A stretch of 64,000 nt of DNA from a bacterium. Its GTDB lineage: Bacteria; Hinthialibacterota; Hinthialibacteria; Hinthialibacterales; Hinthialibacteraceae. Shown piece after piece: positions 75 through 46,771 of this stretch. The number at the start of each line of letters is the position of its first letter. Position 1 is the stretch's first letter. The position numbers and the translations under genes were made by a program. The stretch covers positions 1,440,001-1,504,000 of the forward strand of contig CAXXMV010000006.1 in assembly GCA_963662285.2 (NCBI GenBank). The letters run 5' to 3'. The notes beneath the pieces are model-generated. The model worked only from the letters and a program-made list of their open reading frames with translations. It ran no database searches and had not been told where the DNA came from.

Positions 75-1647
75 TTATTTAAGATTTATTTTTATAATGC
101 GAGTTTTGTTTGGTTCGAGATTGATGGCAAGTCCATTATGCAGTTGGGCGCCGGTGAATGTTTTGGCGCCGTCATCCATGGTTACGTTATAACTTTCTTC
201 CGGTTCTACCGTAAACCATTCGGGGATGGTGTTCATGCGCGGCCAGTCTTTCTGGAATCCCATGTAGAGTCGATAGCGTGGTATATCGAATTCCAGATGT
301 CCTTGGTAGTTTTCTTTAGCTCGCAATGAAATAACGATGCCATTGTCTATAGGTGCGGCGCCGAGTTCCAGCCCTTGCTGCCAGGGACGCGCCAGGACGC
401 CTTGAGTATGCATCAGCGCTTGCATGATGGTGGTGCGGACGCCGTTAGCTTGCAATTTCATGGTTCCCCAGAGCTCGCCGTTCTCCAGGCGCGAGGGATG
501 ATCAACTATGTTGTTTTTGGTTTCGCGGTCGACCCATTCAAATCCTTCTTTGACGGGAAGACGGTTGAGCATGTAAATGGCGCCTTCAATAGAATCCGCA
601 TACCCGTCAATGGATTCACCTTCCCAGGGATAGTCTTTGTATTTGGGATTCATCATGCTGGCTAGAGTCGCCTTCATGTGTGATGTGTATGTGTTCGTCC
701 CCATCGCCATGTCGTAGCAAAGATACCCCACATAGTTGTATCCCCATCCATCGCTCATTCTGCCATTCCGATCGTCCCTTTTCGTGAGATGGTTATACAT
801 CATGCCCACGTCAAGGATGCCTTTTTCGAGAATCGTGTCATACATTTTTTTCAGGCGGTCGCCATATTCAACCGCTTTTTGCGGGCGGTGTGTGGTGAGC
901 ACAGCTTGCAATAAACCGAGACCGCCTATTATTTCACAGCCGTGGTCGCGCAGGACGCGTCGGGACATAGTTGTCGTCGGCAAAATAATAGTCGGCCAGT
1001 CGTATTGCCCAGGTAAGATATTTTTCATCTCCAGTCATGGTGTATAACCGCGCCAGCGCTTGCAGCTGCTCGCCATTCACTTCGACATCGTTGGAGGGGA
1101 TCATACCGAAAGGCGTCTCAATATCCGCGAATTTCCAGAGGTCGTCTTCAATGGCGCGCATGCGGTCAAACCATTCATCGCGGCCAGTCACTTCGACAAT
1201 AGCTATAAGGCAGTCTTTGACGTATTCCGATGCCTGAAATACTAACTCTTCGTTTTTTACTTTGATAGTCTCTTGTTTTTTGTAATCATACGGCGCCGGG
1301 ATGCGGCCTTTCACATTGCATAAAGAACGTTCAGCATGCAGTATGCTGCGTACCGGGCCGTTTAATGCTTCTATATCAGTGGCCCATGCCGCCCATGTCA
1401 GGAAGGGATAACAATCGGCCGCTGTATCCCGGTAATTCCAATAACCATCGGCAATGTACAAACCTGTTTTTTCGTCAATTTTCGGCAATGCGATTTCATG
1501 CAGCCAACGATGGACCTTGCTTAACGAATGGCCGGCGATTTTGGCTGACCGTGAGGCTCGCGCAATGGCGTCAGCATCTTTCTCTTGCGCCAAAGATATC
1601 TGAACCATCATGCCAGTGATTAATGTAAGTAGAATAAGACGTTTCAT
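75..1647 (-). pseudogene. Secreted (alpha/alpha)-barrel glycoside-hydrolase-like protein split by a frameshift at ~953 (ORFs 934..1647 and 75..1028)
   Basis: Signal peptide MKRLILLTLITG; motif ALARLYTMTGDEKYLTWAIRLADY; removing one C from cgt-c-ctg-cgc-gac-cac (GG at 953-954 on +) joins DDNYVPTR to LRDHGCEIIGG, giving ~523 aa. Confidence 0.7.
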
Positions 1648-1789
1648 AATATTATTTCCATTATCTGTTTAAAATTGGAATTAGAGAGATGATTCCGTGA
1701 AATTCTCAATTAGAATTATGCGGTTTAAATTCTAAAGAGTCAACATGATATGCATATTTCGTTATAATTGGCGGCGGGCGTCAAAAGAG

Positions 1790-1896
1790 GGTGCCAAGGG
1801 CAGTGTATTTTCTGCCCTTGATGCGATCACCCACGGATCTAAGTATCCCTCTCCCAAGATTGGGAGAGGCCAGGTGAGGGTTGATAACAACCACCC
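1790..1896 (+). repeat. Composite direct repeat copy 1 (GCCAAGGGC hairpin + CTCTCCCAAGATTGGGAGAG hairpin)
   Basis: Aligns with 2490-2602, including CTCTCCCAAGATTGGGAGAGGCCAGGnGAGGGTTGATAACAACCACCC. Confidence 0.85.
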
Positions 1897-1993
1897 AATC
1901 ATAAAAAAACTAAACAAATGTACATGATTGGCACGCTTCTTGCCATATAACGTATCGAAGCATCAAATAAATCCAATATTCAGGAGAAGCCAA

Positions 1994-2344
1994 ATGTCTA
2001 TCACGCCCCAAGCCATATCCAAATTCGATGAAAATATCATGGACGCCATGTACCACTGCATCATGAAGATTTCAGAAAACTTAAAAAAAAGATACGACCC
2101 GGATTCCCCCGAATCAAACGCCCTCTTCCGTCTCTTCTGTTCTGCATCCAGAACCATGATACAAATGACCAATAAATATCTTAAGGCGCAAGATAAGATA
2201 AATCAAAATACCCAAAATCCGCTAAACAACAAACAATCAAACTTAAACAATATCCCGGTTGATAACTCAAATTCATCCTTAAAACAGCAAGATAACGACA
2301 AAAATCATGGAGGATCATTCTGGAGAAAAAAGAAAACCGCATAA
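1994..2344 (+). CDS. Hypothetical protein (116 aa) with N/Q-rich tail
   Basis: AGGAGA RBS before ATG 1994 inside ORF 1928..2344; no recognised motif. Confidence 0.6.
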   Translation: MSITPQAISKFDENIMDAMYHCIMKISENLKKRYDPDSPESNALFRLFCSASRTMIQMTNKYLKAQDKINQNTQNPLNNKQSNLNNIPVDNSNSSLKQQDNDKNHGGSFWRKKKTA

Positions 2345-2489
2345 CCAAAACGGTTTCAAAGAAAAATAAAAACCAATTTCCCGCCGTTCCTCGACGGGCG
2401 CGGGATAGTACTGCGCGTTATCTTGCACTGACCAATATAAATGGCCGCCAATAATGGGTGGAAAGGCGATATTGTCATTAAGTTAAGCG

Positions 2490-2602
2490 GGCGCCAAGGG
2501 CAAGACCGCAAAGCGGTCAGCCCTTGATGCGATAACCTACGTTTCCCAGTATTCCTCTCCCAAGATTGGGAGAGGCCAGGAGAGGGTTGATAACAACCAC
2601 CC
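2490..2602 (+). repeat. Composite direct repeat copy 2
   Basis: Aligns with 1790-1896. Confidence 0.85.
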
Positions 2603-2708
2603 GAATGAAAAAATCCACCACAAAAAGTGAGCAAAGAGCCTAATCCTCTATTGCTGACAAATCCAGTATGTTACAATCAACCTAATCCTATACATCAGGT
2701 TAAATATT

Positions 2709-5279
2709 ATGACGCCCGAAGAAAAAGCGCTTAAGAAAATCAAAGCAGCCAAACGAACCGGCGCCGATTATCTCGATCTTTCAAATATGGGTTTAACCTC
2801 GCTGCCGCCGGAGGTGTGTGGACTCACCAACCTGTCTAGACTAGATTTGGATAATAACCAACTAAGCGTGCTGCCGCCGGAGGTGTGTGGACTCACCAAC
2901 CTGACGACACTCTGGCTGAATAATAACCAACTAAGCGTGCTGCCGCCGAAGGTGTGTGGACTCACCAACCTGACGAAACTCTGGCTGAATAATAACCAAC
3001 TAAGCGTGCTGCCGCCGGAGGTGTGTGGACTCACAAACCTGACGGAACTGTATCTAAGTTATAACCAACTAACCTCGCTGCCGCCGGAGGTGTGTGGACT
3101 CACCAACCTGTCTAGTCTAGATTTGGATAATAACCAACTAAGCGTGCTGCCGCCGGAGGTGTGTGGACTCTCCAATCTGACGAGACTGTATCTAAGTGAT
3201 AACCAACTAAGCGTGCTGCCGCCGGAGGTAGGTCAACTCGCCAATCTCACTTCACTCGATCTACGTAGCAACCAACTAATCGTGCTGCCGCCGGAGGTAG
3301 TTCAACTCACAAAATTAGAATATCTCTTTCTTGTTGGAAATAAATTACCCATACCACCTGAGATTCTCAATTATTCTCATAATCCATCAAAAATCCTAAA
3401 TTACTATTTTGAGCATATTAAAACCGAAGCGCCTAAACGGGCGCTTAATGAAGCCAAGGTGCTGTTCGTTGGCCAGGGAGATGTGGGTAAAACATCGTTG
3501 ATCAAGATGCTGCTGACAGGTAAATACGATAAGAACGAGAACAAGACGGAAGGGATCGACATTCATAAGTGGGATGTGAAGATAAAAGGCGATAAGGTGC
3601 GTCTTAACCTCTGGGATTTCGGCGGGCAGGAGATTATGCATTCCACCCATAAATTTTTCCTCACCAAACGCAGCGTATATGTTCTGGTGCTCGATTCGCG
3701 CAGGGACGATCGCGCTAACCGTTTATCCTATTGGCTGAGGCTGATCGAAAGTTTTGCCAGCGATTCTCCGGTAATCGTAGTTTGCAACCAGTGCGATGAG
3801 GATCAACTCAACCTCGATTGGCGCAACCTGCATGCTAAATTCCCGAATATCCGCCATTTCGTCAAACGCGCATCCTGCGAGACGCCCGAGGGGATAGATG
3901 ATCTAAAAGAGGCCATTCGTGAACAGGCTGCTAAACTTGATCACCTCAAAGATGTCCTGTTAGAAAGCGAGTTTGCTGTTAAAGATGAACTTGAAAATAT
4001 GGAGGAACCTTTCGTCTCGTATGACGACTATCTGGAAATGTGTAAGCGACATGGTTTGACCAATGAACAGAGCCAAAACACCCTGCTTGAGTTTCTGCAC
4101 GACCTGGGAATTGTGTTGCATTACAGCGATGCGCCTCACCTGGAATTTACCAATGTCCTGAAACCTGAATGGGTGACTGAGGGAGTTTATAAAATCCTCA
4201 ATGCAAATGAATTTAAAAACACCAATGGCGTGGTGGAAACGGATAAACTATCCCTCGTTCTTGACCATAAAGCCTATCCCAAAGATAAGCGCATGTTCGT
4301 ATTAGAGATGATGGTGAAATTCGAATTGTGTCATGAGTTTGAAGGTTCGCGTCACTCAAAATTCCTTGTACCGGATTTACTGCATACCGAAGCACTTGAT
4401 ACCGGCGACTGGTCGGATGCGCTGGCTTTCCAATACCACTACGAGGTGCTCCCTCAAAGCATCATGACCCGCTTTATCGTACGCATGTTTCCGTATATGT
4501 CTGATAGCGTCTGCTGGTTGAAAGGGGTCATGCTTGAATCGGAAGACGGCAGGAATCAGGCGTTGATTAAATCAGATTTAGACGATGCCAAAATCTTCAT
4601 TAAAGTGCGGGGCCAAGAGGGAACCCGCCGCGACCTGCTGCAAATCATCCGCGCCGAATTCAGGTTGATACATGAGACATTTTCCAAACTAAGGCCAAAG
4701 GAAATGGTTCCAATCCCTGATACAGAAGCAGTGTATCCATACAAAAGTTTATTGAAATTGAAAGAAAATGTGATTGATAAATACTATCTTCCGGAAGCTG
4801 ATTGTATTATCTATCCTAATCAATTATTGGATATAGTCGAAACGCCAAAATGGCGTGAAGATCATAAAAAAATGAATTCATCTGAATCAGATGGATCAAT
4901 TAATTTAAAAATTGATATTAATCAGGGAGATAAGAGAATGGAAAAATACAAGATTAATAATGAAGGCGGCGCGGTTAATATTAAGGGAACACAGAACGTT
5001 GGTTCTATCAATTTCGTTAAATCGGTTGAACAATCCACTTTAAGCGACGACCTGAAAAATGCCTTTACCGCCGCTTATCAGAAACTAAAGGAAGGCGGTC
5101 TACCGGAAGCATACCAAAAACCTGTTGAAGACGACCTAAATACAATCAAGACGGAGATGGAAAAAGAAACTCCTGATCAAGGGGTGGTCAAAACAATATG
5201 GAATAGAATCCAACAGGTAGCTCCATCCGTAGCAACAGCGCTTGGTATGGCGGCGGCGTTAAAATCATTGTTGGTCTAA
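2709..5279 (+). CDS. LRR-Roc-COR (Roco family GTPase) protein with C-terminal helical extension
   Basis: 23-aa LRRs; P-loop GQGDVGKTS, TEGI, WDFGGQ, NQCD; COR motifs LLEFLHDLGIVLHY and VLKPEWVTEGVY. Confidence 0.93.
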   Translation: MTPEEKALKKIKAAKRTGADYLDLSNMGLTSLPPEVCGLTNLSRLDLDNNQLSVLPPEVCGLTNLTTLWLNNNQLSVLPPKVCGLTNLTKLWLNNNQLSVLPPEVCGLTNLTELYLSYNQLTSLPPEVCGLTNLSSLDLDNNQLSVLPPEVCGLSNLTRLYLSDNQLSVLPPEVGQLANLTSLDLRSNQLIVLPPEVVQLTKLEYLFLVGNKLPIPPEILNYSHNPSKILNYYFEHIKTEAPKRALNEAKVLFVGQGDVGKTSLIKMLLTGKYDKNENKTEGIDIHKWDVKIKGDKVRLNLWDFGGQEIMHSTHKFFLTKRSVYVLVLDSRRDDRANRLSYWLRLIESFASDSPVIVVCNQCDEDQLNLDWRNLHAKFPNIRHFVKRASCETPEGIDDLKEAIREQAAKLDHLKDVLLESEFAVKDELENMEEPFVSYDDYLEMCKRHGLTNEQSQNTLLEFLHDLGIVLHYSDAPHLEFTNVLKPEWVTEGVYKILNANEFKNTNGVVETDKLSLVLDHKAYPKDKRMFVLEMMVKFELCHEFEGSRHSKFLVPDLLHTEALDTGDWSDALAFQYHYEVLPQSIMTRFIVRMFPYMSDSVCWLKGVMLESEDGRNQALIKSDLDDAKIFIKVRGQEGTRRDLLQIIRAEFRLIHETFSKLRPKEMVPIPDTEAVYPYKSLLKLKENVIDKYYLPEADCIIYPNQLLDIVETPKWREDHKKMNSSESDGSINLKIDINQGDKRMEKYKINNEGGAVNIKGTQNVGSINFVKSVEQSTLSDDLKNAFTAAYQKLKEGGLPEAYQKPVEDDLNTIKTEMEKETPDQGVVKTIWNRIQQVAPSVATALGMAAALKSLLV
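2794..3310 (+). repeat. 69-bp tandem repeat array encoding LRRs
   Basis: CTGCCGCCG(G/A)AGGT recurs at 2802, 2871, 2940, 3009, 3078, 3147, 3216, 3285. Confidence 0.95.
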
Positions 5280-5290
5280 AATGCAACGAA

Positions 5291-5382
5291 GTAGGGTGGG
5301 CTAAAAGCGACAGCGTAGCCCACCATGATACGTAGGTGGCTCCGGTGGGCTACGCCGCTTTGCGGCTTTTAGCCCACCCTAC
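5291..5382. repeat. Inverted pair of GTAG REPs (REPIN/BIME-like) between convergent genes
   Basis: GTAGGGTGGGCTA...TAGCCCACC (5291-5324) and GGTGGGCTAC...TAGCCCACCCTAC (5344-5382). Confidence 0.85.
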
Positions 5383-5414
5383 GGGATTTTTTTTAATCCA
5401 CAACAGGATGTCTT

Positions 5415-6449
5415 TTATCCCAACAGCTCTTGCAGCATTTTCTTGCCATAGCGCAGCGTTTTTTGCATGTCGGGGACGCCGTCTTGCTCGAAGGTCAGGT
5501 AGCCGGTGTATTCTATGTCGCGCAGAGTTTTGACTACTGCTTTGAAATCCATTACTCCTTCGCCGATCCCTACGAAGACAAGACCTTCGCTGTCGATATC
5601 GCGGATGTGGGCGTTCATCAGATGATCCTTAACCTTGAGAATGGCCATCGGTGGATATTCGCGCTGCAACTGAATCCAACCGATATCCAGATTCATGCCT
5701 AAGCGTGGGTCTTTGATGTGATCCCACAGCCGCAGGAAAGCGGTTGAATCGTGTACTAAGGTGTGGGTGTGGTTTTCGATGGTGAAGCGCAGGCCGTGGT
5801 GGGCGGCGCGTTCGACGCAGCCCTTCATGGTATGCACGAAGGTATCCCACACTTGGTCGTAATCGAATCCCTCTGCGATATCTATGTGGAACTTCTTACC
5901 GGCGCCTGATTCAGCGAAATAGCGCGGCAAGTAGGCGTGCGGTCCGGTCATCTCGCGGGGCCAGGGCGACACGATGTTGATGAAAGGCGCATTCAGGGTG
6001 CGCCCGATTTTGCAGCCCTCCTCGAACACATCCAGGCTGCGGTTGCGGTCGTCGGAGTTGAGACTGGAGAGGTTTTCCACGGCGGATTGAAAGAGCACAA
6101 ACTGCGAAACGGCCAGGTTGTGCGAATCAAGTTTCTTCTTCATGTTGGGGATGGTGGAAGGCTGGAGCCAATAGTCTTTGAGATCGACTGCTTCTCCGAT
6201 GATCAACTCGATGGCGTCGAATCCCAGCCCGGCGGTCTGGTCTATCGCCTTATCAAAGGGATAGCCTTTGATGATGCCGCCGTAGTTCCAACACACGTTG
6301 CCCAGTTTGATCTGACCGGGCTTAAAACCGGGGGGGATGAATCTCTTAGGCTTTGCGGCGGCGCCCAATGCGGGAACGGCGCTGACAGCGGATGCCAGGG
6401 CGGCGCTTTGGAGGAATTGTCTACGGTTGGCAGTGGAAGTCGATTTCAT
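5415..6449 (-). CDS. Tat-exported sugar phosphate isomerase/epimerase (xylose-isomerase-like TIM barrel)
   Basis: NRRQFL Tat motif; IENH, NLDIGW, HIRD, GEGVMDF, TFEQD. Confidence 0.85.
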   Translation of the reverse strand: MKSTSTANRRQFLQSAALASAVSAVPALGAAAKPKRFIPPGFKPGQIKLGNVCWNYGGIIKGYPFDKAIDQTAGLGFDAIELIIGEAVDLKDYWLQPSTIPNMKKKLDSHNLAVSQFVLFQSAVENLSSLNSDDRNRSLDVFEEGCKIGRTLNAPFINIVSPWPREMTGPHAYLPRYFAESGAGKKFHIDIAEGFDYDQVWDTFVHTMKGCVERAAHHGLRFTIENHTHTLVHDSTAFLRLWDHIKDPRLGMNLDIGWIQLQREYPPMAILKVKDHLMNAHIRDIDSEGLVFVGIGEGVMDFKAVVKTLRDIEYTGYLTFEQDGVPDMQKTLRYGKKMLQELLG

Positions 6450-6563
6450 GATTTCTACTCCTTGAAGTGTATCCTTTTGTATGCAGAATTACTAAACACT
6501 ACATAAAATACTCGATATTGAAAATCAAAAAGGGCATACAATTTGTTATAATAAGTGGCTTAA

Positions 6564-6598
6564 TCAAGGGCTGACCGCAATGCGGTCTTGCCCTTGGC
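6564..6598 (+). repeat. TCAAGGGC...GCCCTTGGC palindromic repeat
   Basis: TCAAGGGCTGACCGCAATGCGGTCTTGCCCTTGGC; 7 family copies in window. Confidence 0.85.
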
Positions 6599-6664
6599 AC
6601 CCATCTAATGTCGTGTGGGTTTTGTTGTTTTAATATATAACCTAATGTATACATCATACAGTAA

Positions 6665-10072: not shown

Positions 10073-10235
10073 TGTCTGAATCTGGATGTCCTTGATAAAA
10101 GGATACTCTGGATGGGTGAATCTATAATCTGATGTTATCCAAATACAGGGATTCTGAATAGCCTGAAAATAGGAATAGGGCGAATGATGAAAAATCCTGG
10201 ATATCCTGCTAATCCAGGGTATCTTGATTCAGACA
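10073..10235. mobile_element. MITE-like element with TGTCTGAATC / GATTCAGACA terminal inverted repeats
   Basis: TGTCTGAATCTGGAT at 10073 and ATCTTGATTCAGACA ending 10235; a lone right end also at 59414-59458. Confidence 0.6.
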
Positions 10236-10301
10236 AAAAAAATATCTTTAAAATATATTCAAATGCATGTTGAAACTAAAATTTATTATAAAGGAAAAAC
10301 T

Positions 10302-10784
10302 ATGATATTTCATCTGAACGATAAAGAGCAATGGCAACCTGTGGTTGATAAATGGCGTGAAGAGGGCAAAGTTATCGTCACCACCAACGGAACTTTCGAT
10401 ATCGTCCATGTAGGACATATCCGGCTGATGACCGAAGCCAAAGCGCAGGGCGATATCCTAATCCTGGGATTAAACAGCGACAAATCAGTTAAACAATATA
10501 AAAGCGAGAAGCGCCCCATCGTCCCCCAGGAAGAACGGGCCAAGTTGATTGAAGCCTTACGCTGCATCGATATGGTGATCATTTTCGATGAACCGGAAAG
10601 CGCCCGCTTCGTCACCGAGGTCAAACCTGATATTCACGCCAAAGATTCAACCTATGGCTATGACCTGATCGAAGCCCCCATAGTAGCCGAATACGGCGGC
10701 AAGATTTATCTGGTCGAAAAAGACGGACATTCCACTACTAATGTTATTCAGAAAATTATTGATGTTTATAAGGATGAGTTGTAG
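10302..10784 (+). CDS. rfaE2: RfaE domain II-like cytidylyl/adenylyltransferase (heptose-1-phosphate adenylyltransferase)
   Basis: TNGTFDIVHVGH, GLNSDKSV, RPIVPQEER, STTNVI; AAGGA RBS before ATG 10302. Confidence 0.85.
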   Translation: MIFHLNDKEQWQPVVDKWREEGKVIVTTNGTFDIVHVGHIRLMTEAKAQGDILILGLNSDKSVKQYKSEKRPIVPQEERAKLIEALRCIDMVIIFDEPESARFVTEVKPDIHAKDSTYGYDLIEAPIVAEYGGKIYLVEKDGHSTTNVIQKIIDVYKDEL

Positions 10785-10829
10785 GTAAGGGATGGACTTA
10801 ATGCTTTCGCTTGTGATTTTGAGTACTAC

Positions 10830-10858
10830 TCAAGGGCTGAAAATATTCTGCCCTTGGC
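10830..10858 (+). repeat. TCAAGGGC...GCCCTTGGC palindromic repeat
   Basis: TCAAGGGCTGAAAATATTCTGCCCTTGGC. Confidence 0.8.
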
Positions 10859-10979
10859 GTACGCGCCTATTCATGTAGTAGATTGATATAATGCATATTA
10901 TTGAAGGTTCATCTCAAAAGTGATTTGCAAATTATATATTTGCCCGTAAAATATATAATAGTTGTTCATTCCCGCAGAA

Positions 10980-11222
10980 ATGGATAAGACGCTGATGAAT
11001 GCCCTGGACATTATTACAGCGATAGAAAAACTGCCGCAAGATGAAAAACAGTTAGTCATTGATTTTGCGGTTTCTATCAGAGAAGCAATGTATCTAGCTG
11101 CTGACTATTCCCCGGAAGATGAGGAGATGATCGTTGAAGAAGCCAAACTCTGTAAACAAAGGGTAGATGTAAAAGAACATTCTTCGGCGGATGACTTGCG
11201 TAATTCTCTTGGTTTAACCTAA
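10980..11222 (+). CDS. Putative antitoxin (acidic, ~75-80 aa)
   Basis: Small acidic ORF 10 bp upstream of RelE-type toxin; C-terminus HSSADDLRNSLGL; start could be 10980 or 10995. Confidence 0.7.
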   Translation: MDKTLMNALDIITAIEKLPQDEKQLVIDFAVSIREAMYLAADYSPEDEEMIVEEAKLCKQRVDVKEHSSADDLRNSLGLT

Positions 11223-11232
11223 GAGCAATTTA

Positions 11233-11493
11233 ATGAGGTTTGTTCACCGCAAAAAATTCACCAAAGGTCTTGAAAAACTCACCCCAAACCAAAAGAAGAG
11301 CGTTGGGGAAGTTATTAAATTATTCGAAGATGATCCTTTCCATCCTAAACTCAATAATCATGCCCTTCATGGTAAACTAAAAGATTTGCGATCTATTTCT
11401 GTCGGAGGAGATTTACGTATCACTTTTTTTGAAGAAGATAATTATGAGGTGGTCTACCTTGTATGTATTGGAACCCATAACCAAGTGTATTGA
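11233..11493 (+). CDS. Type II TA toxin, RelE/YafQ-family mRNA interferase
   Basis: KKFTKGLEKL, HALHGKLKDLRSISV, DLRI, C-terminal IGTHNQVY. Confidence 0.9.
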   Translation: MRFVHRKKFTKGLEKLTPNQKKSVGEVIKLFEDDPFHPKLNNHALHGKLKDLRSISVGGDLRITFFEEDNYEVVYLVCIGTHNQVY

Positions 11494-11528
11494 AGATTCT
11501 TTACATTGGCGCCCCGGTATGATTTCAA

Positions 11529-12182
11529 TCAGGCTGGTTTCATTTTTAGGATTTTTTTGACAAGAAGGTCAACGTTCGTATATGGATGCCATGTTCTACT
11601 TGATGGATTTGCAGCAGAGTTATGATGAAAATCGTTAATTCTTTCTGCACCTTTAAATGCTTTTTCAAGGTTGGGGTATAACGAATTAATAATTGATTGA
11701 TTCTTTTTGTAATCTGGGATATATACTTGTAAATCATGTCTGACTTCATCGTTATCCTTAAATTGTTTTGTTGTATAAGCGAAATGAAGAAGAAACCAGA
11801 ATTCAAAACTGGGAGTTGAAAAAGCGATATTAAAGGTAGGCTTTTTCCCTTTTATATTGTTATTTATACTATTTGCTTTATCGATGGCTTTATCGAAAGT
11901 TTCATGTGTATCGCGATCAAAAACACACCAAATGTGATCAAACAGTGCTTTATTTTTATTGAGCATTTTTTCTGCATGTTCCACAACCTTTATTGGTGCA
12001 GAGTCACATTCTTTACCATGGATTTCTATCTGGAGTTGATGGATTTTCCTCTTTTTTCTTAGATCTTTAAAATATTGTGTTTCGGTCGTCTCTCTTTCGC
12101 ATACAATCAATATTTTATTACCTGAGAATTTAGGAGCATTTTGAGTGAATTTATTTTTTGCGCGATTTTGATGTCTACTCAT
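11529..12182 (-). CDS. rloB: RloB-family protein (AbiLii-like)
   Basis: ILIVCE..TETQYF, WCVFDRD, STPSFEFWFLLHF, PYTNVDLLV. Confidence 0.9.
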   Translation of the reverse strand: MSRHQNRAKNKFTQNAPKFSGNKILIVCERETTETQYFKDLRKKRKIHQLQIEIHGKECDSAPIKVVEHAEKMLNKNKALFDHIWCVFDRDTHETFDKAIDKANSINNNIKGKKPTFNIAFSTPSFEFWFLLHFAYTTKQFKDNDEVRHDLQVYIPDYKKNQSIINSLYPNLEKAFKGAERINDFHHNSAANPSSRTWHPYTNVDLLVKKILKMKPA

Positions 12183-13462
12183 TAGAAATCAAGCCCCCCC
12201 AGGAATGGAATAGCGCCATAGCGTCCCGCCAAGTATCCTTTTTGCAGGGCTTCTTCTTTCCGGGGCTTAAAATCGGTCAGGGGATATAAAATAGTCGCGG
12301 CTTCTTTATTCTTCTCGGTAAACCAGACTTGGTCGCGTCGCAATATATCCGTATTCAACTGGGTTGTATCATGGGTTGTGAAAATTAGTTGAGCGCCATT
12401 TTTATTCAACTCCTCGCTGTGCACCATCTCAATCAATTTTCTGAAAAGCATAGGATGTAAATTTGAACCGATTTCATCCAGGAAAATAGTTTTTCCTAGA
12501 TTTAGTGAATCTACCAAAGGGCCGAGTAATGAGAACAAAACTCTTGTTCCTGCCGATTCTTTATTTGGAGTTAAATAGACATTTTTGCCTGTATCATTTT
12601 TCTTGTGAAGGAATTTCCATGCTATTAATTCTTCTTTTAATTTCTTAATAAACATATCCATTATTGAATTAGGTTTACTTGTTGGTGATTCTAAATTACG
12701 AAATTCATTCCTTTTCGTTTTTATATCCATAACGCCTAAATCCGCTTGTTTTAATATATTTCTAATGATAATAGACTGTTCATTTTTATCATCAATAATT
12801 GAAGCGGTAATTTCTGAATTGGATAATGATTCAAAATAATCTAAAAATCGAAAGCAGTTTTTGAACCATTCGTAAACATTACCTAATTGCCTATGGTTAA
12901 ATTGAGCGGCAGTCGATAGAAAGAGAGTTTTAAATTTTGTTTTCTCTTTCAGGCTTTCTTTCTCGCCCTTGAGGAATGTACTGAAATTCCATTCATACTC
13001 TTTTTTTTCATCATTAAAAAAACGGTAAAACCATTGCTGGGCTTTCCCATTAGGGTAGGCAATAAGCCATTCCTTATAAACTTTCTTTTTTTTTATCGCA
13101 AATCCATATTGATAACGGATTCCCTCATGAATAAAGATGATTTCGAATTCACTTAGTTCCTTTTCGCTTTTTGAATCAAATCCAAAAGGAGCAATATCAA
13201 TTTCATCAAGAAAATTTCTTCGGATTGATTCGTCAACAATTAAATTTCTCATGAATTTTCCGGCTTTGTATAAATTGCTTTTGCCTGATGCGTTAGCGCC
13301 GTAGATGGCTGCGCTTTTTAGTAGTTTTACGTTAGATAATCCTGGCGCTTGGGGATCGATCAGGTGGTTGGGGTGTTCGTTGTCTTTATTGTTGGCCACC
13401 ATGCTCAGGGTTTGTTTATCTTTAATGGAACGGTAATTTTTTACTGAAAATTCAATCAACAT
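12182..13462 (-). CDS. AAA_21/ABC-type ATPase (RloA/AbiLi-like)
   Basis: MLIEFSVKNYRSI, Walker A YGANASGKSN, ESAGT, LDEIGSNLHP, QLIFTTHD, RRDQVWF, YLAGRYGAIP; TAATG stop/start overlap with rloB. Confidence 0.92.
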   Translation of the reverse strand: MLIEFSVKNYRSIKDKQTLSMVANNKDNEHPNHLIDPQAPGLSNVKLLKSAAIYGANASGKSNLYKAGKFMRNLIVDESIRRNFLDEIDIAPFGFDSKSEKELSEFEIIFIHEGIRYQYGFAIKKKKVYKEWLIAYPNGKAQQWFYRFFNDEKKEYEWNFSTFLKGEKESLKEKTKFKTLFLSTAAQFNHRQLGNVYEWFKNCFRFLDYFESLSNSEITASIIDDKNEQSIIIRNILKQADLGVMDIKTKRNEFRNLESPTSKPNSIMDMFIKKLKEELIAWKFLHKKNDTGKNVYLTPNKESAGTRVLFSLLGPLVDSLNLGKTIFLDEIGSNLHPMLFRKLIEMVHSEELNKNGAQLIFTTHDTTQLNTDILRRDQVWFTEKNKEAATILYPLTDFKPRKEEALQKGYLAGRYGAIPFLGGLDF

Positions 13463-13792: not shown

Positions 13793-13836
13793 TTGACATT
13801 TATTGTAACAAAGATTATGATTATTAATCTTTGTTA
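13793..13836 (+). promoter_or_regulatory. Sigma70 promoter of pAgo-SIR2 operon with overlapping inverted-repeat operator
   Basis: TTGACA (13793) - 17 bp - TATGAT (13816); TAACAAAGATTA-N7-TAATCTTTGTTA at 13806-13836. Confidence 0.7.
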
Positions 13837-13912: not shown

Positions 13913-15814
13913 ATGAATGATCATAAAAAAATAGCTTTGAATTTCTTACCCATAGAACCACAGAATTTTGAATTCACAGTTTATCGCAAGTTAATGATAA
14001 ATAATGAACAGAGACCTTGTGAAGATGTTTTTAAATCTTCATTACCAAATGAAAAGAAAAATGAACCTTGGCCCAAATATTGGGTGTCCTTTACACAAAA
14101 AGAAGATTATGAAGAATTTTTAGTTAATACTAAAACAAACAATTATTTGACTAGAGAGTATCTTTTTCAACAATTAGTAATGAATATCAAGGAGCATATT
14201 CCTGAACGACTCGAAAGAAATGAAGAAAAATTCTATAAACGTAGAATATTTTTTAAACTTGAAGAATTTGATATTGGCAAACAAGTAATATGGCTAGATC
14301 CATTTTATTTAAAAAAAACATCCACTTTTGGATTCTTAATTGATTTTTGTTTTATCTCTAATGATGATTCATCACATTCAAAAGAACGTCAAAAACTATC
14401 TCTTAATTTAGATAGTTCCTATCGCTCAAACAAAAATTTCCACCAAGAAAAACTTTATAAAATAAAAAATTTCATTGACATATTTCTTGAAAAATTAAAT
14501 CCAATTTCTGATAATACTGACTTGAACTTAAGGATATCTAACAAATTTTCATGCATTAATTCAAGTACATTAAGTAATAAAATCTACAGTTTTGATAATA
14601 TGAAAACTAATAATTCTCAATTTCAGGGAATCAAAGAATACGGACCCTATCAAAAAAGTAATATTAATATTCACTATCATTTTATATTTAAGGAAGAAAA
14701 TATCGATTTAGGCCGGGATCTATTAAGGGCTTTAAATGGAGAAACATTTAAACAAACTTTTCCAGGAATGGAAAAAATGTTTCATATAAAATTAGGAAAG
14801 GATAATGTTTCAAAAATAATAATTAATTCATATAATAAAAGTGAAATTGATAAAGCAATCGAATCAATCAACAAATCAGGCTATGAAAATAACATTGCTA
14901 CTTTCATTTTCCCAGAAAAAGATTCAGATTTTTACTATAACCTAAAGAATGTTTTTCTTAATTCTGGTGTTTTAACCCAAGGCGTTCATATTGAAACCTT
15001 AAAAAATACGTCTGGTTTAAAGTGGTCGATTTCAAGTATTGCTCTTCAGTTGTTTTCAAAATCTGGTGGGGTGCCTTGGAGGCTTAAACCTAGTAATGAA
15101 AATTGTTTAATCATTGGAATTGGCAAAGCGCACCATCTGAAAAAAGATAATGGTCGAACTTTAGTTGAAAAATATTTTGCATATTCTGTTCTGACAGATT
15201 CAAGTGGAAAATATGTTTCTATGGATGTACTTTCTAGTGAAAAGGATGAAAATAATTATCTAAATAGTCTTCAAGCAAATCTGAAAAAAATTGTAGAAGA
15301 TTATAAAGATAAATATCAAAAAATCACTCTACATATACCTTTTAAAATACAACTACGAGAACTTGACGCAATAAAGAAAACGATTATAAACATAGATTCA
15401 GAGAAAGAATTTGTTGTAATCAAAATTGATGATCAGAGTAAATATTTTGGATATAATATAGATGTTAATTCATTTGTGCCTTATGAAAGTACTTTGTTAG
15501 AACTTTCACAAAATGAATATTTATTATGGACTGAAGGTTTAAATTACCATAATAAAAAAGTGATTAAACGATATTCAAATCCACTCCATATAGAATTTTA
15601 TTATTCAAATAAAAATTTATTAAGTCAGAGTGAAAAGAATTTATATTTACAGGATATAATGAATTTGTCAGGTGCAAGCTGGCGGGGATTCAATGCAAAG
15701 AAACTACCGATATCAATGTTTTATCCCAAGATAATATCACGATTCATAAAAGAGTTTTCAACTCGTAATCTAACAGAGATTAATTTTCAAGATTTACCAC
15801 CTTGGTTTTTATAA
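13913..15814 (+). CDS. Prokaryotic Argonaute, catalytically inactive (long-B-like)
   Basis: MID pocket YYNLK...TQGV...QLFSKSGGVPW; PIWI with degenerate tetrad (IIGIGKAH, TLHIPFK, LPISMFYPK); C-terminal PWFL; ~230-aa region N-terminal to FQGIKEYGPY. Confidence 0.9.
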   Translation: MNDHKKIALNFLPIEPQNFEFTVYRKLMINNEQRPCEDVFKSSLPNEKKNEPWPKYWVSFTQKEDYEEFLVNTKTNNYLTREYLFQQLVMNIKEHIPERLERNEEKFYKRRIFFKLEEFDIGKQVIWLDPFYLKKTSTFGFLIDFCFISNDDSSHSKERQKLSLNLDSSYRSNKNFHQEKLYKIKNFIDIFLEKLNPISDNTDLNLRISNKFSCINSSTLSNKIYSFDNMKTNNSQFQGIKEYGPYQKSNINIHYHFIFKEENIDLGRDLLRALNGETFKQTFPGMEKMFHIKLGKDNVSKIIINSYNKSEIDKAIESINKSGYENNIATFIFPEKDSDFYYNLKNVFLNSGVLTQGVHIETLKNTSGLKWSISSIALQLFSKSGGVPWRLKPSNENCLIIGIGKAHHLKKDNGRTLVEKYFAYSVLTDSSGKYVSMDVLSSEKDENNYLNSLQANLKKIVEDYKDKYQKITLHIPFKIQLRELDAIKKTIINIDSEKEFVVIKIDDQSKYFGYNIDVNSFVPYESTLLELSQNEYLLWTEGLNYHNKKVIKRYSNPLHIEFYYSNKNLLSQSEKNLYLQDIMNLSGASWRGFNAKKLPISMFYPKIISRFIKEFSTRNLTEINFQDLPPWFL

Positions 15815-15826
15815 AAGAAGATTAGC

Positions 15827-16879
15827 ATGAATTTTAAGGAAAACGAGATAATTTTTTTATTAGGTGCTGGGGCTAGTAAAGATGCAGATATCCCAATGTC
15901 TAATGAAATGATTGAAAAAGTTGAAAATTTAATTTTATCTGATAAATTTTGGAAAGAGTTTAGGGATTTTTATTATTTGATAAAGAGTGCAATTTTTTAT
16001 GCAGATGGTGTTCAGGGTAAGTTTAATAAAAAAGTTAACTTTAATATAGAGAGATTGTTTAATGTCTTAATTGAACTAGAAAAAAAAGAAGAACATCCAC
16101 TATATCCATTTATTGGCCAATGGAATATTAAATTTTCTGAAATTGTAGGTAATGATTATGAGTTAATTAAAAAATTTCAAGATTTAATCTTAAGTGAATT
16201 AAAAAATTGGATTACGCTAAAAATTAATAGTAACGCAGATTACTATAAAAAACTCAAAGATTTTAAAATAGAGATCAATCATTCTCTCAGGTTATTTACT
16301 CTTAACTATGATTTATGTGTAGAAAAGTCATTGTTATCAGAAGATTTTATTGTGGAACGAGGCTTCAATGAAAATCGCATTTGGGATTACAAAAAGATAA
16401 TTGACTTTCCTGCTGACAATACTCCAGATATTTTTCTATATAAGTTACACGGCTCTATTGATTGGGAAAGAGATAAGAATACTGGAGAAGTCAAATATAC
16501 TGATTGTAATGCACAAAATCCAGATTTGATTTTTGGAAGCGCCTATAAACTACAATATGTAGATCCATATTTATTTCAATTTTCTGAATTTAGGCACTAC
16601 ACTCTTAAAGCAAAACTCATAATTGTTGTTGGTTATGGCTTAGGAGATGAACATATAAATGGAATCATAAAGCAAGCGTTGGAGCAGGATGATTCAAAAA
16701 AATTGCTATATGTATCTCCTTCTGCAAATAAAGAAGAAATACAAAAATATCTTGGATTGAACAATGATGATCAATTGGAAACGATAAAATCAAGTGCCTC
16801 GAATTACTTTCAGAAAGAATTAGAATTGAATAAATTGAAAAACTTCTTTCCAGATGATTCAGATGATTTATGGATGTGA
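15827..16879 (+). CDS. SIR2-like (SIR2_2) NADase effector
   Basis: FLLGAGAS, FTLNYD, YKLHGSIDW, VVGYGLGDEHIN; 12 bp after pAgo stop. Confidence 0.9.
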   Translation: MNFKENEIIFLLGAGASKDADIPMSNEMIEKVENLILSDKFWKEFRDFYYLIKSAIFYADGVQGKFNKKVNFNIERLFNVLIELEKKEEHPLYPFIGQWNIKFSEIVGNDYELIKKFQDLILSELKNWITLKINSNADYYKKLKDFKIEINHSLRLFTLNYDLCVEKSLLSEDFIVERGFNENRIWDYKKIIDFPADNTPDIFLYKLHGSIDWERDKNTGEVKYTDCNAQNPDLIFGSAYKLQYVDPYLFQFSEFRHYTLKAKLIIVVGYGLGDEHINGIIKQALEQDDSKKLLYVSPSANKEEIQKYLGLNNDDQLETIKSSASNYFQKELELNKLKNFFPDDSDDLWM

Positions 16880-44446: not shown

Positions 44447-46771
44447 TTAAAATCCTGGAGGACCTCTCATGAATCCTCTTGGTGGTCTGGCGTTTTGATT
44501 AATACCTCCAGTTATTTCACTATTATCGAGATCATTACTTTGATTGGCGTCCCAATTCTTGAACCAATCCGCCCATAATGATTTGAAATCAGATTGAGTT
44601 ATATTGCCGTCATCATCCGCTTTTTCCATAAAAGGCGCCACCAAGAGCATTCCTGGAGAAAAACCTTCTGGAGGACCGAATGGCATGTCTTCTGGAGCGT
44701 GAAAGATTTGCCCTAAACCATCTGAAATCTCTTTTTCATTTAGAATTTTGCTATTGTCCTTATCCCATTCAGTAGACCATTGAACAACCTTGTTATCCCA
44801 TTCGGATTGAGGAATTTTGCCATCTTTATCAATATCAAGTACATCAAGGAGTTGTGGGCCTAAAAACATACCCGGACCAAAACCGCCGGGACCGCCGGGA
44901 CCGCCGGGGCCGCCGGGGCCGCCAGGACCGCCTCTACCACCAGGGCCGCCTCGCGTGAGTTTGACTCCTTCAGATTCTCCATCCAACTGTTGTTGGATGG
45001 ATAGACGACGTCCTTCGATCCAGGAAACAATAGAAAAACTTGAGCGTATTCCCCCTGGTCCTCTTCCTCCGGGGCCTCTTCCAAAATCTGGTCTTCCTTC
45101 TCTACGGACTTCTCTGTTCTGATCTGCCCCTGGTCTATTTCCGGGAGAAAATGGATTATCTATCTCTCGCGTTATATCAATGGGTTCATCAGAGATTGCT
45201 TTAACGTATTGATCGAATTGCGAGTTCGGTTCTTCTTTTACTGTATCTTGAATGACCTTATTTATGGCGTCAATTTTGTCTCTGATGCGTTCCGGTTGGA
45301 AAATTGTTTTATTGAACTCGCGGATATATCCCAAATATTTTTCTTTCCACTGAGGTATAGCCAGTATGCGTTCAATAAGAATCTGATTAGTCGCTACAGG
45401 TTGATCTATGTTCGCTTGCATTTGATTAATGTAAGATCCAACCATGGGGAACGTGCCGAATGAATGATTCAAATCCCAAGGTATCCATAGGTATTTTTGA
45501 CTATTGGGATCGCCATAGATGTAAAAATTCTGTCCCATCGAGAGAATTCCATCGTAATTGGAGGTAACCACATATACCGATAGAAAACGCAGGAATTGAT
45601 TTACATCGGTATATTTTTCGATCTGTCCTGTGAATTCTTCATCGCTCGATTCATTGACGAATTTGGTGAAATCCATAAACCGTTTGGCTTCTTTCCAGGT
45701 AACATCATCCGATTTTGGCATGTATTGTCGTACATAATTATCCCAGTTTTCGCCCAGGTATGGAAAATCTTGAAGATGTTGCGCTTTGACTAATAGACCT
45801 TTTTTTTGATCAAAATTACGTTTCAGAAAGTCTGAATCGACTTGTTCAATCATGGTATATAAACCAAGATATTCAGGTTCGTTGCGTCCTTCCACATTCA
45901 AATAAATCTTAGCCAATGCTGTTCTGGGCGCCGCTATCTGGAAATCCCTGAACATTTCATAAGCCAATGTATCGATCATGTGAGATGGAGTCATCATATT
46001 GTTATTCAGATTTAATTTTTTGATGCCAAAAAATTTCTGGTTTTTTGAGAATCTATTAAAATCAACTTTGAATGATTTCTTGGGGCTATTACGCGCCATC
46101 ATAAATGTTGAATGCCCCTTAAACCGTAGACCAACATTCTTGATGGTTTGTCCTTCAAATACAAAATCTGCTTTAACGTATGTAAAATTCGTTCCTCCCA
46201 TACCAGGTCCCGGGCCTCTCATTCCTCCTTCTCGGCGGTTTGGACGTTGATCTTGTGTATCAGGTCGGTCGTTAGAATCTCGTATGTTTTGATCCGGTCG
46301 TGGAGGACGTTGATCTTGCGCATCAGGTCGAACGTTAGTATCGCGCATGTTTTGATCCGGCCGGGGAGGACGTTGATCTTGTGCATCAGGTCGAACGTTA
46401 GTATCTCGCATGTTTTGATCCGGTCGTGGAGGACGTTGATCTTGTGCATCAGGTCGAACGTTAGTATCTCGTATGTTTTGATCCGGTCGTGGAGGACGAT
46501 TATCTCCATCATTCATTGGCGGACGATTGCCCATAGGAGGTCCACCGGGGAATCCACCGGAATTTTCCGGTTCGATTTTTTCCCATTGTTCAGCGGAAAC
46601 CTTTAATTGTATGGTCCATAGTTTCGTCATGCCGAATAATTCATCTGATGATTTATCACCCAGCGATTTTGATTCAGCAATTTCTGGATAATAGACGCAC
46701 GCCAATAGAAGAATTATTAAAGTACAGCAAATTGTGAAATACTTAGATGTCATCTTGTATTTTCCTCTCAA
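44447..46771 (-). CDS. CotH-family secreted kinase with 21-aa tandem repeats, GGP repeats and EF-hand-like C-terminus
   Basis: VGLRFKGHST, KKSFKVDFN, YLGLYTMIEQVD, NFYIY, WIPWDLNHSFG; DIDKDGKI; start 46771 or 46753. Confidence 0.9.
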   Translation of the reverse strand: MRGKYKMTSKYFTICCTLIILLLACVYYPEIAESKSLGDKSSDELFGMTKLWTIQLKVSAEQWEKIEPENSGGFPGGPPMGNRPPMNDGDNRPPRPDQNIRDTNVRPDAQDQRPPRPDQNMRDTNVRPDAQDQRPPRPDQNMRDTNVRPDAQDQRPPRPDQNIRDSNDRPDTQDQRPNRREGGMRGPGPGMGGTNFTYVKADFVFEGQTIKNVGLRFKGHSTFMMARNSPKKSFKVDFNRFSKNQKFFGIKKLNLNNNMMTPSHMIDTLAYEMFRDFQIAAPRTALAKIYLNVEGRNEPEYLGLYTMIEQVDSDFLKRNFDQKKGLLVKAQHLQDFPYLGENWDNYVRQYMPKSDDVTWKEAKRFMDFTKFVNESSDEEFTGQIEKYTDVNQFLRFLSVYVVTSNYDGILSMGQNFYIYGDPNSQKYLWIPWDLNHSFGTFPMVGSYINQMQANIDQPVATNQILIERILAIPQWKEKYLGYIREFNKTIFQPERIRDKIDAINKVIQDTVKEEPNSQFDQYVKAISDEPIDITREIDNPFSPGNRPGADQNREVRREGRPDFGRGPGGRGPGGIRSSFSIVSWIEGRRLSIQQQLDGESEGVKLTRGGPGGRGGPGGPGGPGGPGGPGGFGPGMFLGPQLLDVLDIDKDGKIPQSEWDNKVVQWSTEWDKDNSKILNEKEISDGLGQIFHAPEDMPFGPPEGFSPGMLLVAPFMEKADDDGNITQSDFKSLWADWFKNWDANQSNDLDNSEITGGINQNARPPRGFMRGPPGF
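46242..46498 (-). repeat. 63-bp tandem repeat x4 (RPPRPDQN(M/I)RDTNVRPDAQDQ)
   Basis: Near-identical DNA units inside the cotH-like gene. Confidence 0.95.

Follow-up and report, generated by a model that had tools for sequence, protein, structure and literature searches.

An inactive long-B-type Argonaute and a stand-alone SIR2 protein as a probable BPAS-type abortive-infection module in a Hinthialibacterota genome

The subject of this study is a pair of neighbouring genes, encoding a prokaryotic Argonaute (pAgo) and a protein of the SIR2 family, in a 64,000-nucleotide stretch of DNA (hereafter the window; positions 1,440,001 to 1,504,000 of contig CAXXMV010000006.1, forward strand, assembly GCA_963662285.2) from a bacterium of the Hinthialibacterota. 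By analogy with characterised systems, we suggest, with a probability of roughly 0.85, that the pair is a BPAS-type abortive-infection module composed of a catalytically inactive long-B pAgo and a separate SIR2 effector. In the excerpts of Song et al. (Nat Commun 2023, PMC10620215) used here, BPAS is described as a long-B pAgo, encoded by the upstream gene, together with a Sir2_2 protein of orthogroup og_44. The original prediction, made from the letters of the DNA, was that a catalytically dead long-B pAgo senses nucleic acid and is coupled to a separate downstream SIR2 NADase, in the manner of BPAS and not of SPARSA; PADLOC models, profile and fold comparisons, conserved residues, gene linkage, co-divergence and a model of the complex support this.

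The gene pair and its protein family

The two genes lie in the same orientation, with 12 nucleotides (nt) between the stop codon of pAgo and the ATG of SIR2:

13913..15814, plus strand: pAgo gene, 633 amino acids (aa); a catalytically inactive, single-chain Argonaute of long-B type.
15827..16879, plus strand: SIR2 gene, 350 aa; a predicted stand-alone effector of the SIR2_2 family, bAgaS-like, with a GAGAS NAD-binding loop and catalytic N160 and H208, and without APAZ.

Both open reading frames (ORFs) are unbroken and of full length relative to the family profiles, and the coordinates, lengths, spacing and motifs first read from the DNA are all present in the translations. In the pAgo these motifs are Y341-x3-K345, Q356, K383, G402-I-G404, H474-I-P-F477, Y604-P-K606 and the C-terminal P630-W-F-L633, and in SIR2 they are G13-A-G-A-S17, T158-L-N160-Y-D162 and L207-H208-G-S210; both sets are far beyond chance expectation.

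The pAgo has a Pfam Piwi match above the gathering score (E 8.9e-14, residues 331-610). A PADLOC screen had been proposed along with the original prediction, and in PADLOC-DB 2.0.0 (2023), the source of our defence-protein models, both proteins match full-length models, namely pAgo_II (PDLC02381; E 6.9e-207, profile positions 2-617 of 617) and, for SIR2, Aga_SIR2 "Class II" (PDLC02408; E 4.5e-119, positions 1-340 of 343). A single-sequence search of solved structures with the pAgo returned AfAgo (2.5e-20), EcAgo of the BPAN system (3.8e-08) and also RsAgo, all three being long-B pAgos according to their named papers. With a profile of 23 family sequences, the Protein Data Bank (PDB) matches were AfAgo (6.2e-32), EcAgo (7.5e-30) and RsAgo (about 2e-16), while the match of the same profile to the short pAgo 8in8 (5.7e-06) was far weaker than those to the long-B proteins. 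The AlphaFold2 model, built from a family alignment, has a predicted local distance difference test score (pLDDT) of 87.1 and a predicted template-modelling score (pTM) of 0.86, and in the PDB Foldseek matches it best to chains of RsAgo, over the whole length (template-modelling score, TM, 0.72-0.76 by query). The protein is thus a MID-PIWI Argonaute, as had been claimed, and profile, fold (RsAgo) and the full-length pAgo_II match place it in the long-B clade; this placement rests on these and on an Epilithonimonas bovis relative (see the last section), the tree described below covering the 81 family pAgos only.

The domain limits of the pAgo were carried over by profile alignment from those of EcAgo, which are given in the excerpts of PMC13535254 as N 1-92, L1 92-155, PAZ 155-218, L2 218-308, MID 308-484 and PIWI 484-731:

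13913..14347, plus strand: N domain and linker L1, pAgo residues ~1-145; from AlphaFold2 secondary structure mostly beta strands with one long helix (77-95), the boundaries being approximate and putative.
14348..14617, plus strand: linker L2, residues ~146-235; contains helix 176-195 and part of the predicted SIR2-contact surface (172-189, 209-214).
14618..15097, plus strand: MID domain, residues ~236-395; contains the 5'-phosphate pocket Y341, K345, Q356 and K383.
15098..15811, plus strand: PIWI domain, inactive, residues ~396-633; the first catalytic Asp position is taken by G404 and the third by I475/P476, loops 516-522 and 543-552 are predicted SIR2 contacts, and the C-terminus is PWFL.

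In that alignment T308 of EcAgo, where MID starts, stands opposite Q236 of the pAgo, and S484, where PIWI starts, opposite residue ~396. The N-terminal part of the pAgo (about 235 residues) is confidently folded and conserved throughout the family. It had been described as a compact N/L1/PAZ* region, and this part of the original prediction has to be revised to N-L1-L2, with PAZ most likely missing or cut to a remnant of at most ~26 residues, as judged from alignment and model, for the following reasons. The pAgo is 98 aa shorter than EcAgo (633 versus 731 aa); N and L1 together take ~145 residues, versus 155 in EcAgo; the alignment to EcAgo starts at EcAgo residue 254, inside L2, opposite profile position 180 in the helix ~176-195; and only ~26 residues (150-175), with one short helix at 157-162, separate the last L1 strand (138-149) from the L2 helix in the AlphaFold2 model. 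Length and alignment leave no room for the domain. Such an absence is compatible with long-B membership, since single-chain long-B pAgos are reported to range from PAZ* to complete PAZ loss (Manakova et al. 2024, NAR, PMC10954474, in the excerpts used).

Residue conservation was tallied over 81 pAgo sequences of the family. The four residues Y341, K345, Q356 and K383, known as the YKQK motif, are invariant (81/81), as are the C-terminal PWFL and H474; the alignment therefore points to an intact MID 5'-end binding pocket, in agreement with the earlier claim. The catalytic Asp positions of PIWI, which we take to be 404 and 475-476, were located through the GxDxxH and RDG motifs and by alignment with inactive relatives. 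Position 404 is Gly in 71, Ser in 8 and Ala in 2 sequences, positions 475-476 are never acidic (0/81), and position 606 is variable (Lys in 33, Gln in 27 and others in 21). Acidic residues had been called absent at three PIWI positions: this stands for the two Asp positions. At the two Asp positions placed, then, the aligned sequences indicate a PIWI domain without the DEDX catalytic tetrad. According to the excerpts used of Ryazansky et al. 2018, catalytic activity is absent from all long-B pAgos.

The only Pfam match in the partner protein is SIR2_2 (E 1.4e-12, residues 156-308, above the gathering score). PADLOC class I models (of the SIR2-APAZ type) cover residues 4-36 only (E 1.3e-05 and 9.1e-04). 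The structure model (pLDDT 86.0) shows a single SIR2 domain into which a helical segment is inserted, and it resembles the stand-alone SIR2 of the SIR2-HerA anti-phage systems (TM 0.67 over ~333 columns) much better than DSR2 or the SIR2-APAZ of SPARSA, the latter match being weak (TM 0.45 by query, 0.29 by target); by sequence, too, the nearest solved relatives are SIR2-HerA proteins (1.2e-12). The single-domain fold, the full-length Aga_SIR2 match and the weak match to SIR2-APAZ of SPARSA bear out the view that SIR2 has no room for APAZ, and sequence and model alike suggest a stand-alone protein. N160, D162 and H208 are present in all 78 full-length homologues (79 rows, the sole gap being the fragment from locus L046), G15 and S17 in 79 of 79 rows and G13 in 78-79 of 79. 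As aligned, the NADase catalytic residues appear to be in place, and N160 would be equivalent to N155 of GbbAgaS and N112 of ThsA.

Of 8000 candidates scored in a search of 5.8 billion protein sequences, 263 are relatives of the pAgo at E <= 0.001; among the 120 listed, most have lengths of 600-668 aa and none exceeds 59% identity to it. A genome scan with one genome per species gave 218 pattern matches. A pAgo relative is encoded at 201 of these, and 80 loci were kept, to which the linkage and flank counts refer. A SIR2 homologue was found by tblastn directly downstream on the same strand in 80 of 80 loci (three of these SIR2 genes being cut by contig ends), with a gap of 5-31 nt between the tblastn matches in 79 loci and of 183 nt in one. 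Pairwise identities of pAgo and SIR2 are strongly correlated (Mantel-type test, 78 pairs; r 0.878, 0 of 999 label permutations as high), which indicates, at the level of sequence, that the two co-diverge and co-evolve. The co-conservation of SIR2 with homologous pAgos, on which the original prediction depended, is thereby borne out, and the tight tie of the two genes is confirmed across many phyla. In a FastTree tree of 81 pAgos, the window protein falls in an 11-member clade (support 0.997) with sequences from Saprospiraceae, Chlorobiota and Bacteroidota metagenome-assembled genomes. Full-length homologues are present on 4 plasmids in PLSDB, and for the pair on a Hymenobacter plasmid the RefSeq annotations read "Piwi domain-containing protein" for the first gene and "SIR2 family protein" for the second; the phage collection gave no match.

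When flank ORFs within 3.5 kb were clustered in the 80 loci, no third conserved gene was found, the commonest family being present in 16. Type I restriction-modification genes often adjoin related pairs (of the 80 loci, 16 have an HsdS-like neighbour and 14 an HsdM-like one, and HsdR-like families are found in 8 and in 7; e.g., L002 at 365-6001 and L025 at 10154-13105), and such neighbours fit the defence-island habit of the pAgo-SIR2 pair. On a Hymenobacter qilianensis plasmid (L082), a TIR-domain protein is annotated at 5903-6631, ~440 nt 3' of SIR2, and a DNA methyltransferase upstream of the pair.

Predicted complex and proposed mechanism

The original prediction had also named an AlphaFold-multimer model of pAgo with SIR2 as a check, and the complex model, made from paired family alignments, supports physical binding of the two as far as a prediction can. 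Its ipSAE score is 0.67 (0.66-0.67 in three runs) versus 0.01 for the best of 3 controls; among solved complexes 58 of 80 attain the ipSAE mark, and among mismatched pairs 2 of 110, a calibration that is rough here due to the use of our own alignments. The runs share at least 95% of contacts, with a partner pLDDT of at least 82. On the pAgo, the predicted interface comprises L2 172-189 and 209-214 and the PIWI loops 516-522 and 543-552, including the near-invariant N519 and S520, and on SIR2 it comprises residues 2-5, 148-153 (just ahead of the N160 strand), 189-201 and the C-terminal 345-350. Since sequence and Foldseek searches of the PDB found no pAgo-bound homologue of SIR2, it is improbable that the result reproduces a BPAS complex already solved.

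In the mechanism which we propose, the pAgo would most likely load short 5'-phosphorylated guides in its conserved MID pocket, and these guides would be RNA, by analogy with RsAgo, EcAgo and characterised inactive pAgos. The guide-loaded pAgo may scan for complementary invader DNA, with SIR2 held inactive on it through the predicted L2 contact and the two PIWI-loop contacts. Formation of the guide-target duplex would release or activate the SIR2 NADase, NAD+ would be depleted, and the consequent death or arrest of the cell would stop the spread of the plasmid or phage. The type of guide, the DNA target, the trigger, the activation step and the NAD+ depletion are thus what we infer by analogy.

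A more specific version for the PAZ-less, SIR2-linked family of ~635 aa, which we regard as rather unlikely and put forward tentatively from the model, is that SIR2 is pre-bound 1:1 through both of its tails and residues 148-153, on L2 and the two conserved PIWI loops of the pAgo, and that the PIWI sheet would relay duplex sensing directly to the NADase site without APAZ or effector recruitment, which would differ from the solved BPAN and short-pAgo systems. If this were true, the interface would be new, as no BPAS structure was found in our searches of the PDB and the literature. A 2025 preprint (10.1101/2025.04.08.647717) proposes, in the excerpts used, a PIWI "beta-relay" through which the sensing of a duplex is transmitted to effectors, and speculates that long-B systems modulate their effectors through it. 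The predicted PIWI-loop contacts are compatible with this idea and are no test of it.

Genomic surroundings and alternative readings

The pair is very poor in GC (23-32%) compared with the flanking transketolase and MlaE/OEP genes (45-55%), and together with the AbiL and toxin genes it is a small defence islet of ~6 kb. The features next to the pair are as follows:

13793..13821, plus strand: candidate sigma-70-like promoter, TTGACA-17-TATGAT, 11/12 match, ~90 nt 5' of the pAgo ATG; tentative.
12182-13462, minus strand: AbiLi, AAA_21 ATPase, 426 aa (PADLOC E 5.8e-97); directly upstream of pAgo and divergent from it.
11529-12182, minus strand: AbiLii, RloB-like, 217 aa (PADLOC E 4.8e-24); overlaps AbiLi by one base.
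11233-11493, plus strand: YafQ/ParE-like toxin, 86 aa (Pfam E 3.6e-08).
10962-11222, plus strand: ORF ahead of the toxin gene, 86 aa, no family match.

The last two (10962-11493), which lie at the margin of the low-GC islet, probably make up a toxin-antitoxin pair of type II. The promoter lies in a 450-nt divergent intergenic region common to pAgo and AbiLi, and it is a candidate only, because promoter-like sites are not enriched (27 in total versus 22.0 +/- 5.5 in shuffles). A simple scan detected no terminator 3' of SIR2, and no Shine-Dalgarno-like sequence is evident ahead of the start codon of pAgo or SIR2. Among the neighbouring ORFs, Pfam recognises transketolase, cytidylyltransferase, the YafQ-like toxin, RloB, AAA_21, MlaE and OEP. 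At the islet borders there are no convincing flanking direct or inverted repeats, the window contains no tRNA, and no integrase is among the Pfam matches of the neighbours. The genome itself (7.29 Mb, 8 contigs) has 1 copy, and a search with this query in 40 related genomes (completeness 59-100%) gave no match. Two sequencing runs contain the stretch; both belong to a single study and may be the source sample, and no RNA run containing it was listed. Due to the low GC relative to the flanks, the single copy and the missing match in related genomes, the module was probably acquired horizontally.

Farther off, the window also encodes a ROCO-type protein (2709-5279, plus strand, 856 aa) in which leucine-rich repeats are combined with Roc GTPase, COR-A and COR-B domains (Pfam COR-A E 9.1e-42), and a CotH kinase domain protein (44447-46771, minus strand, 774 aa, Pfam E 9e-59).

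Several points weigh against the BPAS-type reading. The positions of the D/E/D/X residues come from sequence motifs and from alignment to AfAgo and EcAgo, which are inactive themselves, and not from residue-level superposition on an active Argonaute. By the NCBIfam equivalogs, the pAgo is not an orthologue of RsAgo and SIR2 is not an orthologue of the named anti-phage SIR2, since both matches are far below their cut-offs (26.3 bits against 700 for ProtArgonAgoRhdb, and 46.1 bits against 500 for SIR2_antiphage). The canonical description of long-B pAgos includes PAZ*, while the pAgo here appears to be without any PAZ, in which it differs from BPAS as well. GbBPAS, the one characterised BPAS, may belong to another subfamily than this PAZ-less one and is compared by its published description. 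In addition, as the excerpts of PMC13535254 have it, activity against phages is shown within the long-B systems only for BPAN.

SIR2-family proteins have several chemistries. From this diversity one may argue for a working pAgo-SIR2 module that acts without bulk NAD+ depletion, as an ADP-ribosyltransferase, a deacylase or a maker of a signal, or for one whose role lies in plasmid competition or in regulating genes and not in abortive infection, and the nearest solved SIR2 folds are indeed from SIR2-HerA and not from a pAgo system. However, the Asn and His that ThsA-like SIR2 proteins need to act as NADases are invariant here, and the context is one of defence (AbiL and toxin-antitoxin genes beside the pair, and type I restriction-modification near related loci). 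Only one BPAS has been tested, going by the excerpts of PMC10620215, but that one depletes NAD+, and we consider such a module improbable. The very foreign GC, together with the absence of evident Shine-Dalgarno-like sequences before both start codons, could also suggest a silent or decaying relic of horizontal acquisition, functionless in its present host; yet both frames are intact and of full length against the family profiles, all checked family-invariant residues are kept, and a strong promoter-like site (the 11/12 candidate) lies upstream, so that a relic appears highly improbable to us.

We give next to no credence to a SPARSA-type short-pAgo system, or to a fragment of Thoeris or SIR2-HerA that happens to lie beside an unrelated Argonaute, even if a SIR2 effector is common to SPARSA and the fold of SIR2 resembles that of SIR2-HerA. 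SPARSA was rejected since the pAgo has its own N-L1-L2 and matches RsAgo by its full-length fold, and since SIR2 lacks APAZ, the PADLOC class I models touching only its first residues (4-36). Thoeris ThsA, which would call for a SLOG domain or a ThsB TIR partner, and SIR2-HerA, which would call for a HerA ATPase partner, were rejected because the protein has SIR2_2 as its sole Pfam domain and neither HerA nor TIR is among the Pfam matches of the neighbours; chance adjacency is excluded by the linkage in 80 of 80 loci.

Comparison with known systems

The BPAS-type module proposed here is closest to GbBPAS. According to the excerpts of PMC10620215, GbbAgaS is toxic alone and GbAgo suppresses this toxicity, cell death and NAD+ loss occur only when a plasmid with a CloDF13 origin is present, the substitution N155A abolishes the effect, and GbAgo and GbbAgaS co-purify. 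Both are two-gene operons with an inactive long-B-type pAgo 5' of a stand-alone Sir2_2 protein, the catalytic Asn is at a comparable place (N160 here, N155 in GbbAgaS), the two genes co-evolve, and binding of the products is predicted here and was found by pull-down in GbBPAS.

In the excerpts of Manakova et al. 2024 (PMC10954474), a conserved Sir2-like protein, akin to ThsA and encoded downstream, is one of the two principal effector types of long-B pAgos, and the Ago of E. bovis (EbAgo) is given as an example of the single-chain long-B pAgos whose PAZ is reduced or lost. Our family set includes the E. bovis locus (L041), where its pAgo is 38% identical to ours over residues 7-633 and its SIR2 homologue starts 16 nt past the pAgo match (by the ends of the tblastn matches). 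EbAgo shares the N-L1-L2-MID-PIWI architecture and the separate Sir2-like gene; its description is bioinformatic only, and the window pAgo is in a different sub-clade, the 11-member one described above. With EcBPAN and RsAgo the module shares the pAgo clade by profile and fold, the inactive PIWI and an effector gene downstream, but their effector is a PD-(D/E)XK nuclease where here it is SIR2, and EcAgo is the longer protein by 98 aa, with a PAZ of ~60 residues (155-218). As is proposed here, SPARSA places a SIR2 NADase under the control of an inactive pAgo and results in abortive infection; there, however, an APAZ resembling N-L1-L2 is fused to SIR2, whereas here it is part of the pAgo, so the polypeptide is split elsewhere, and between the two SIR2 domains there is only a distant relationship (Foldseek TM 0.45/0.29).

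The original prediction had considered that this divergent member may be undescribed. This is not supported, as PADLOC of 2023 already has full-length models of both proteins, 201 related loci were found and EbAgo is already in PMC10954474; the module is of a widespread, already described type and no new class of system. It is a further intact BPAS-type module, with no more than 59% identity to the matches listed from 5.8 billion sequences, and yields as by-products a domain map with PAZ loss, a list of invariant residues and a predicted pAgo-SIR2 interface, which could guide mutagenesis or cryo-EM of BPAS. Every BPAS feature that could be checked was found in it, and from the textbook long-B system it differs only by the absence of PAZ, a variation that has already been published.

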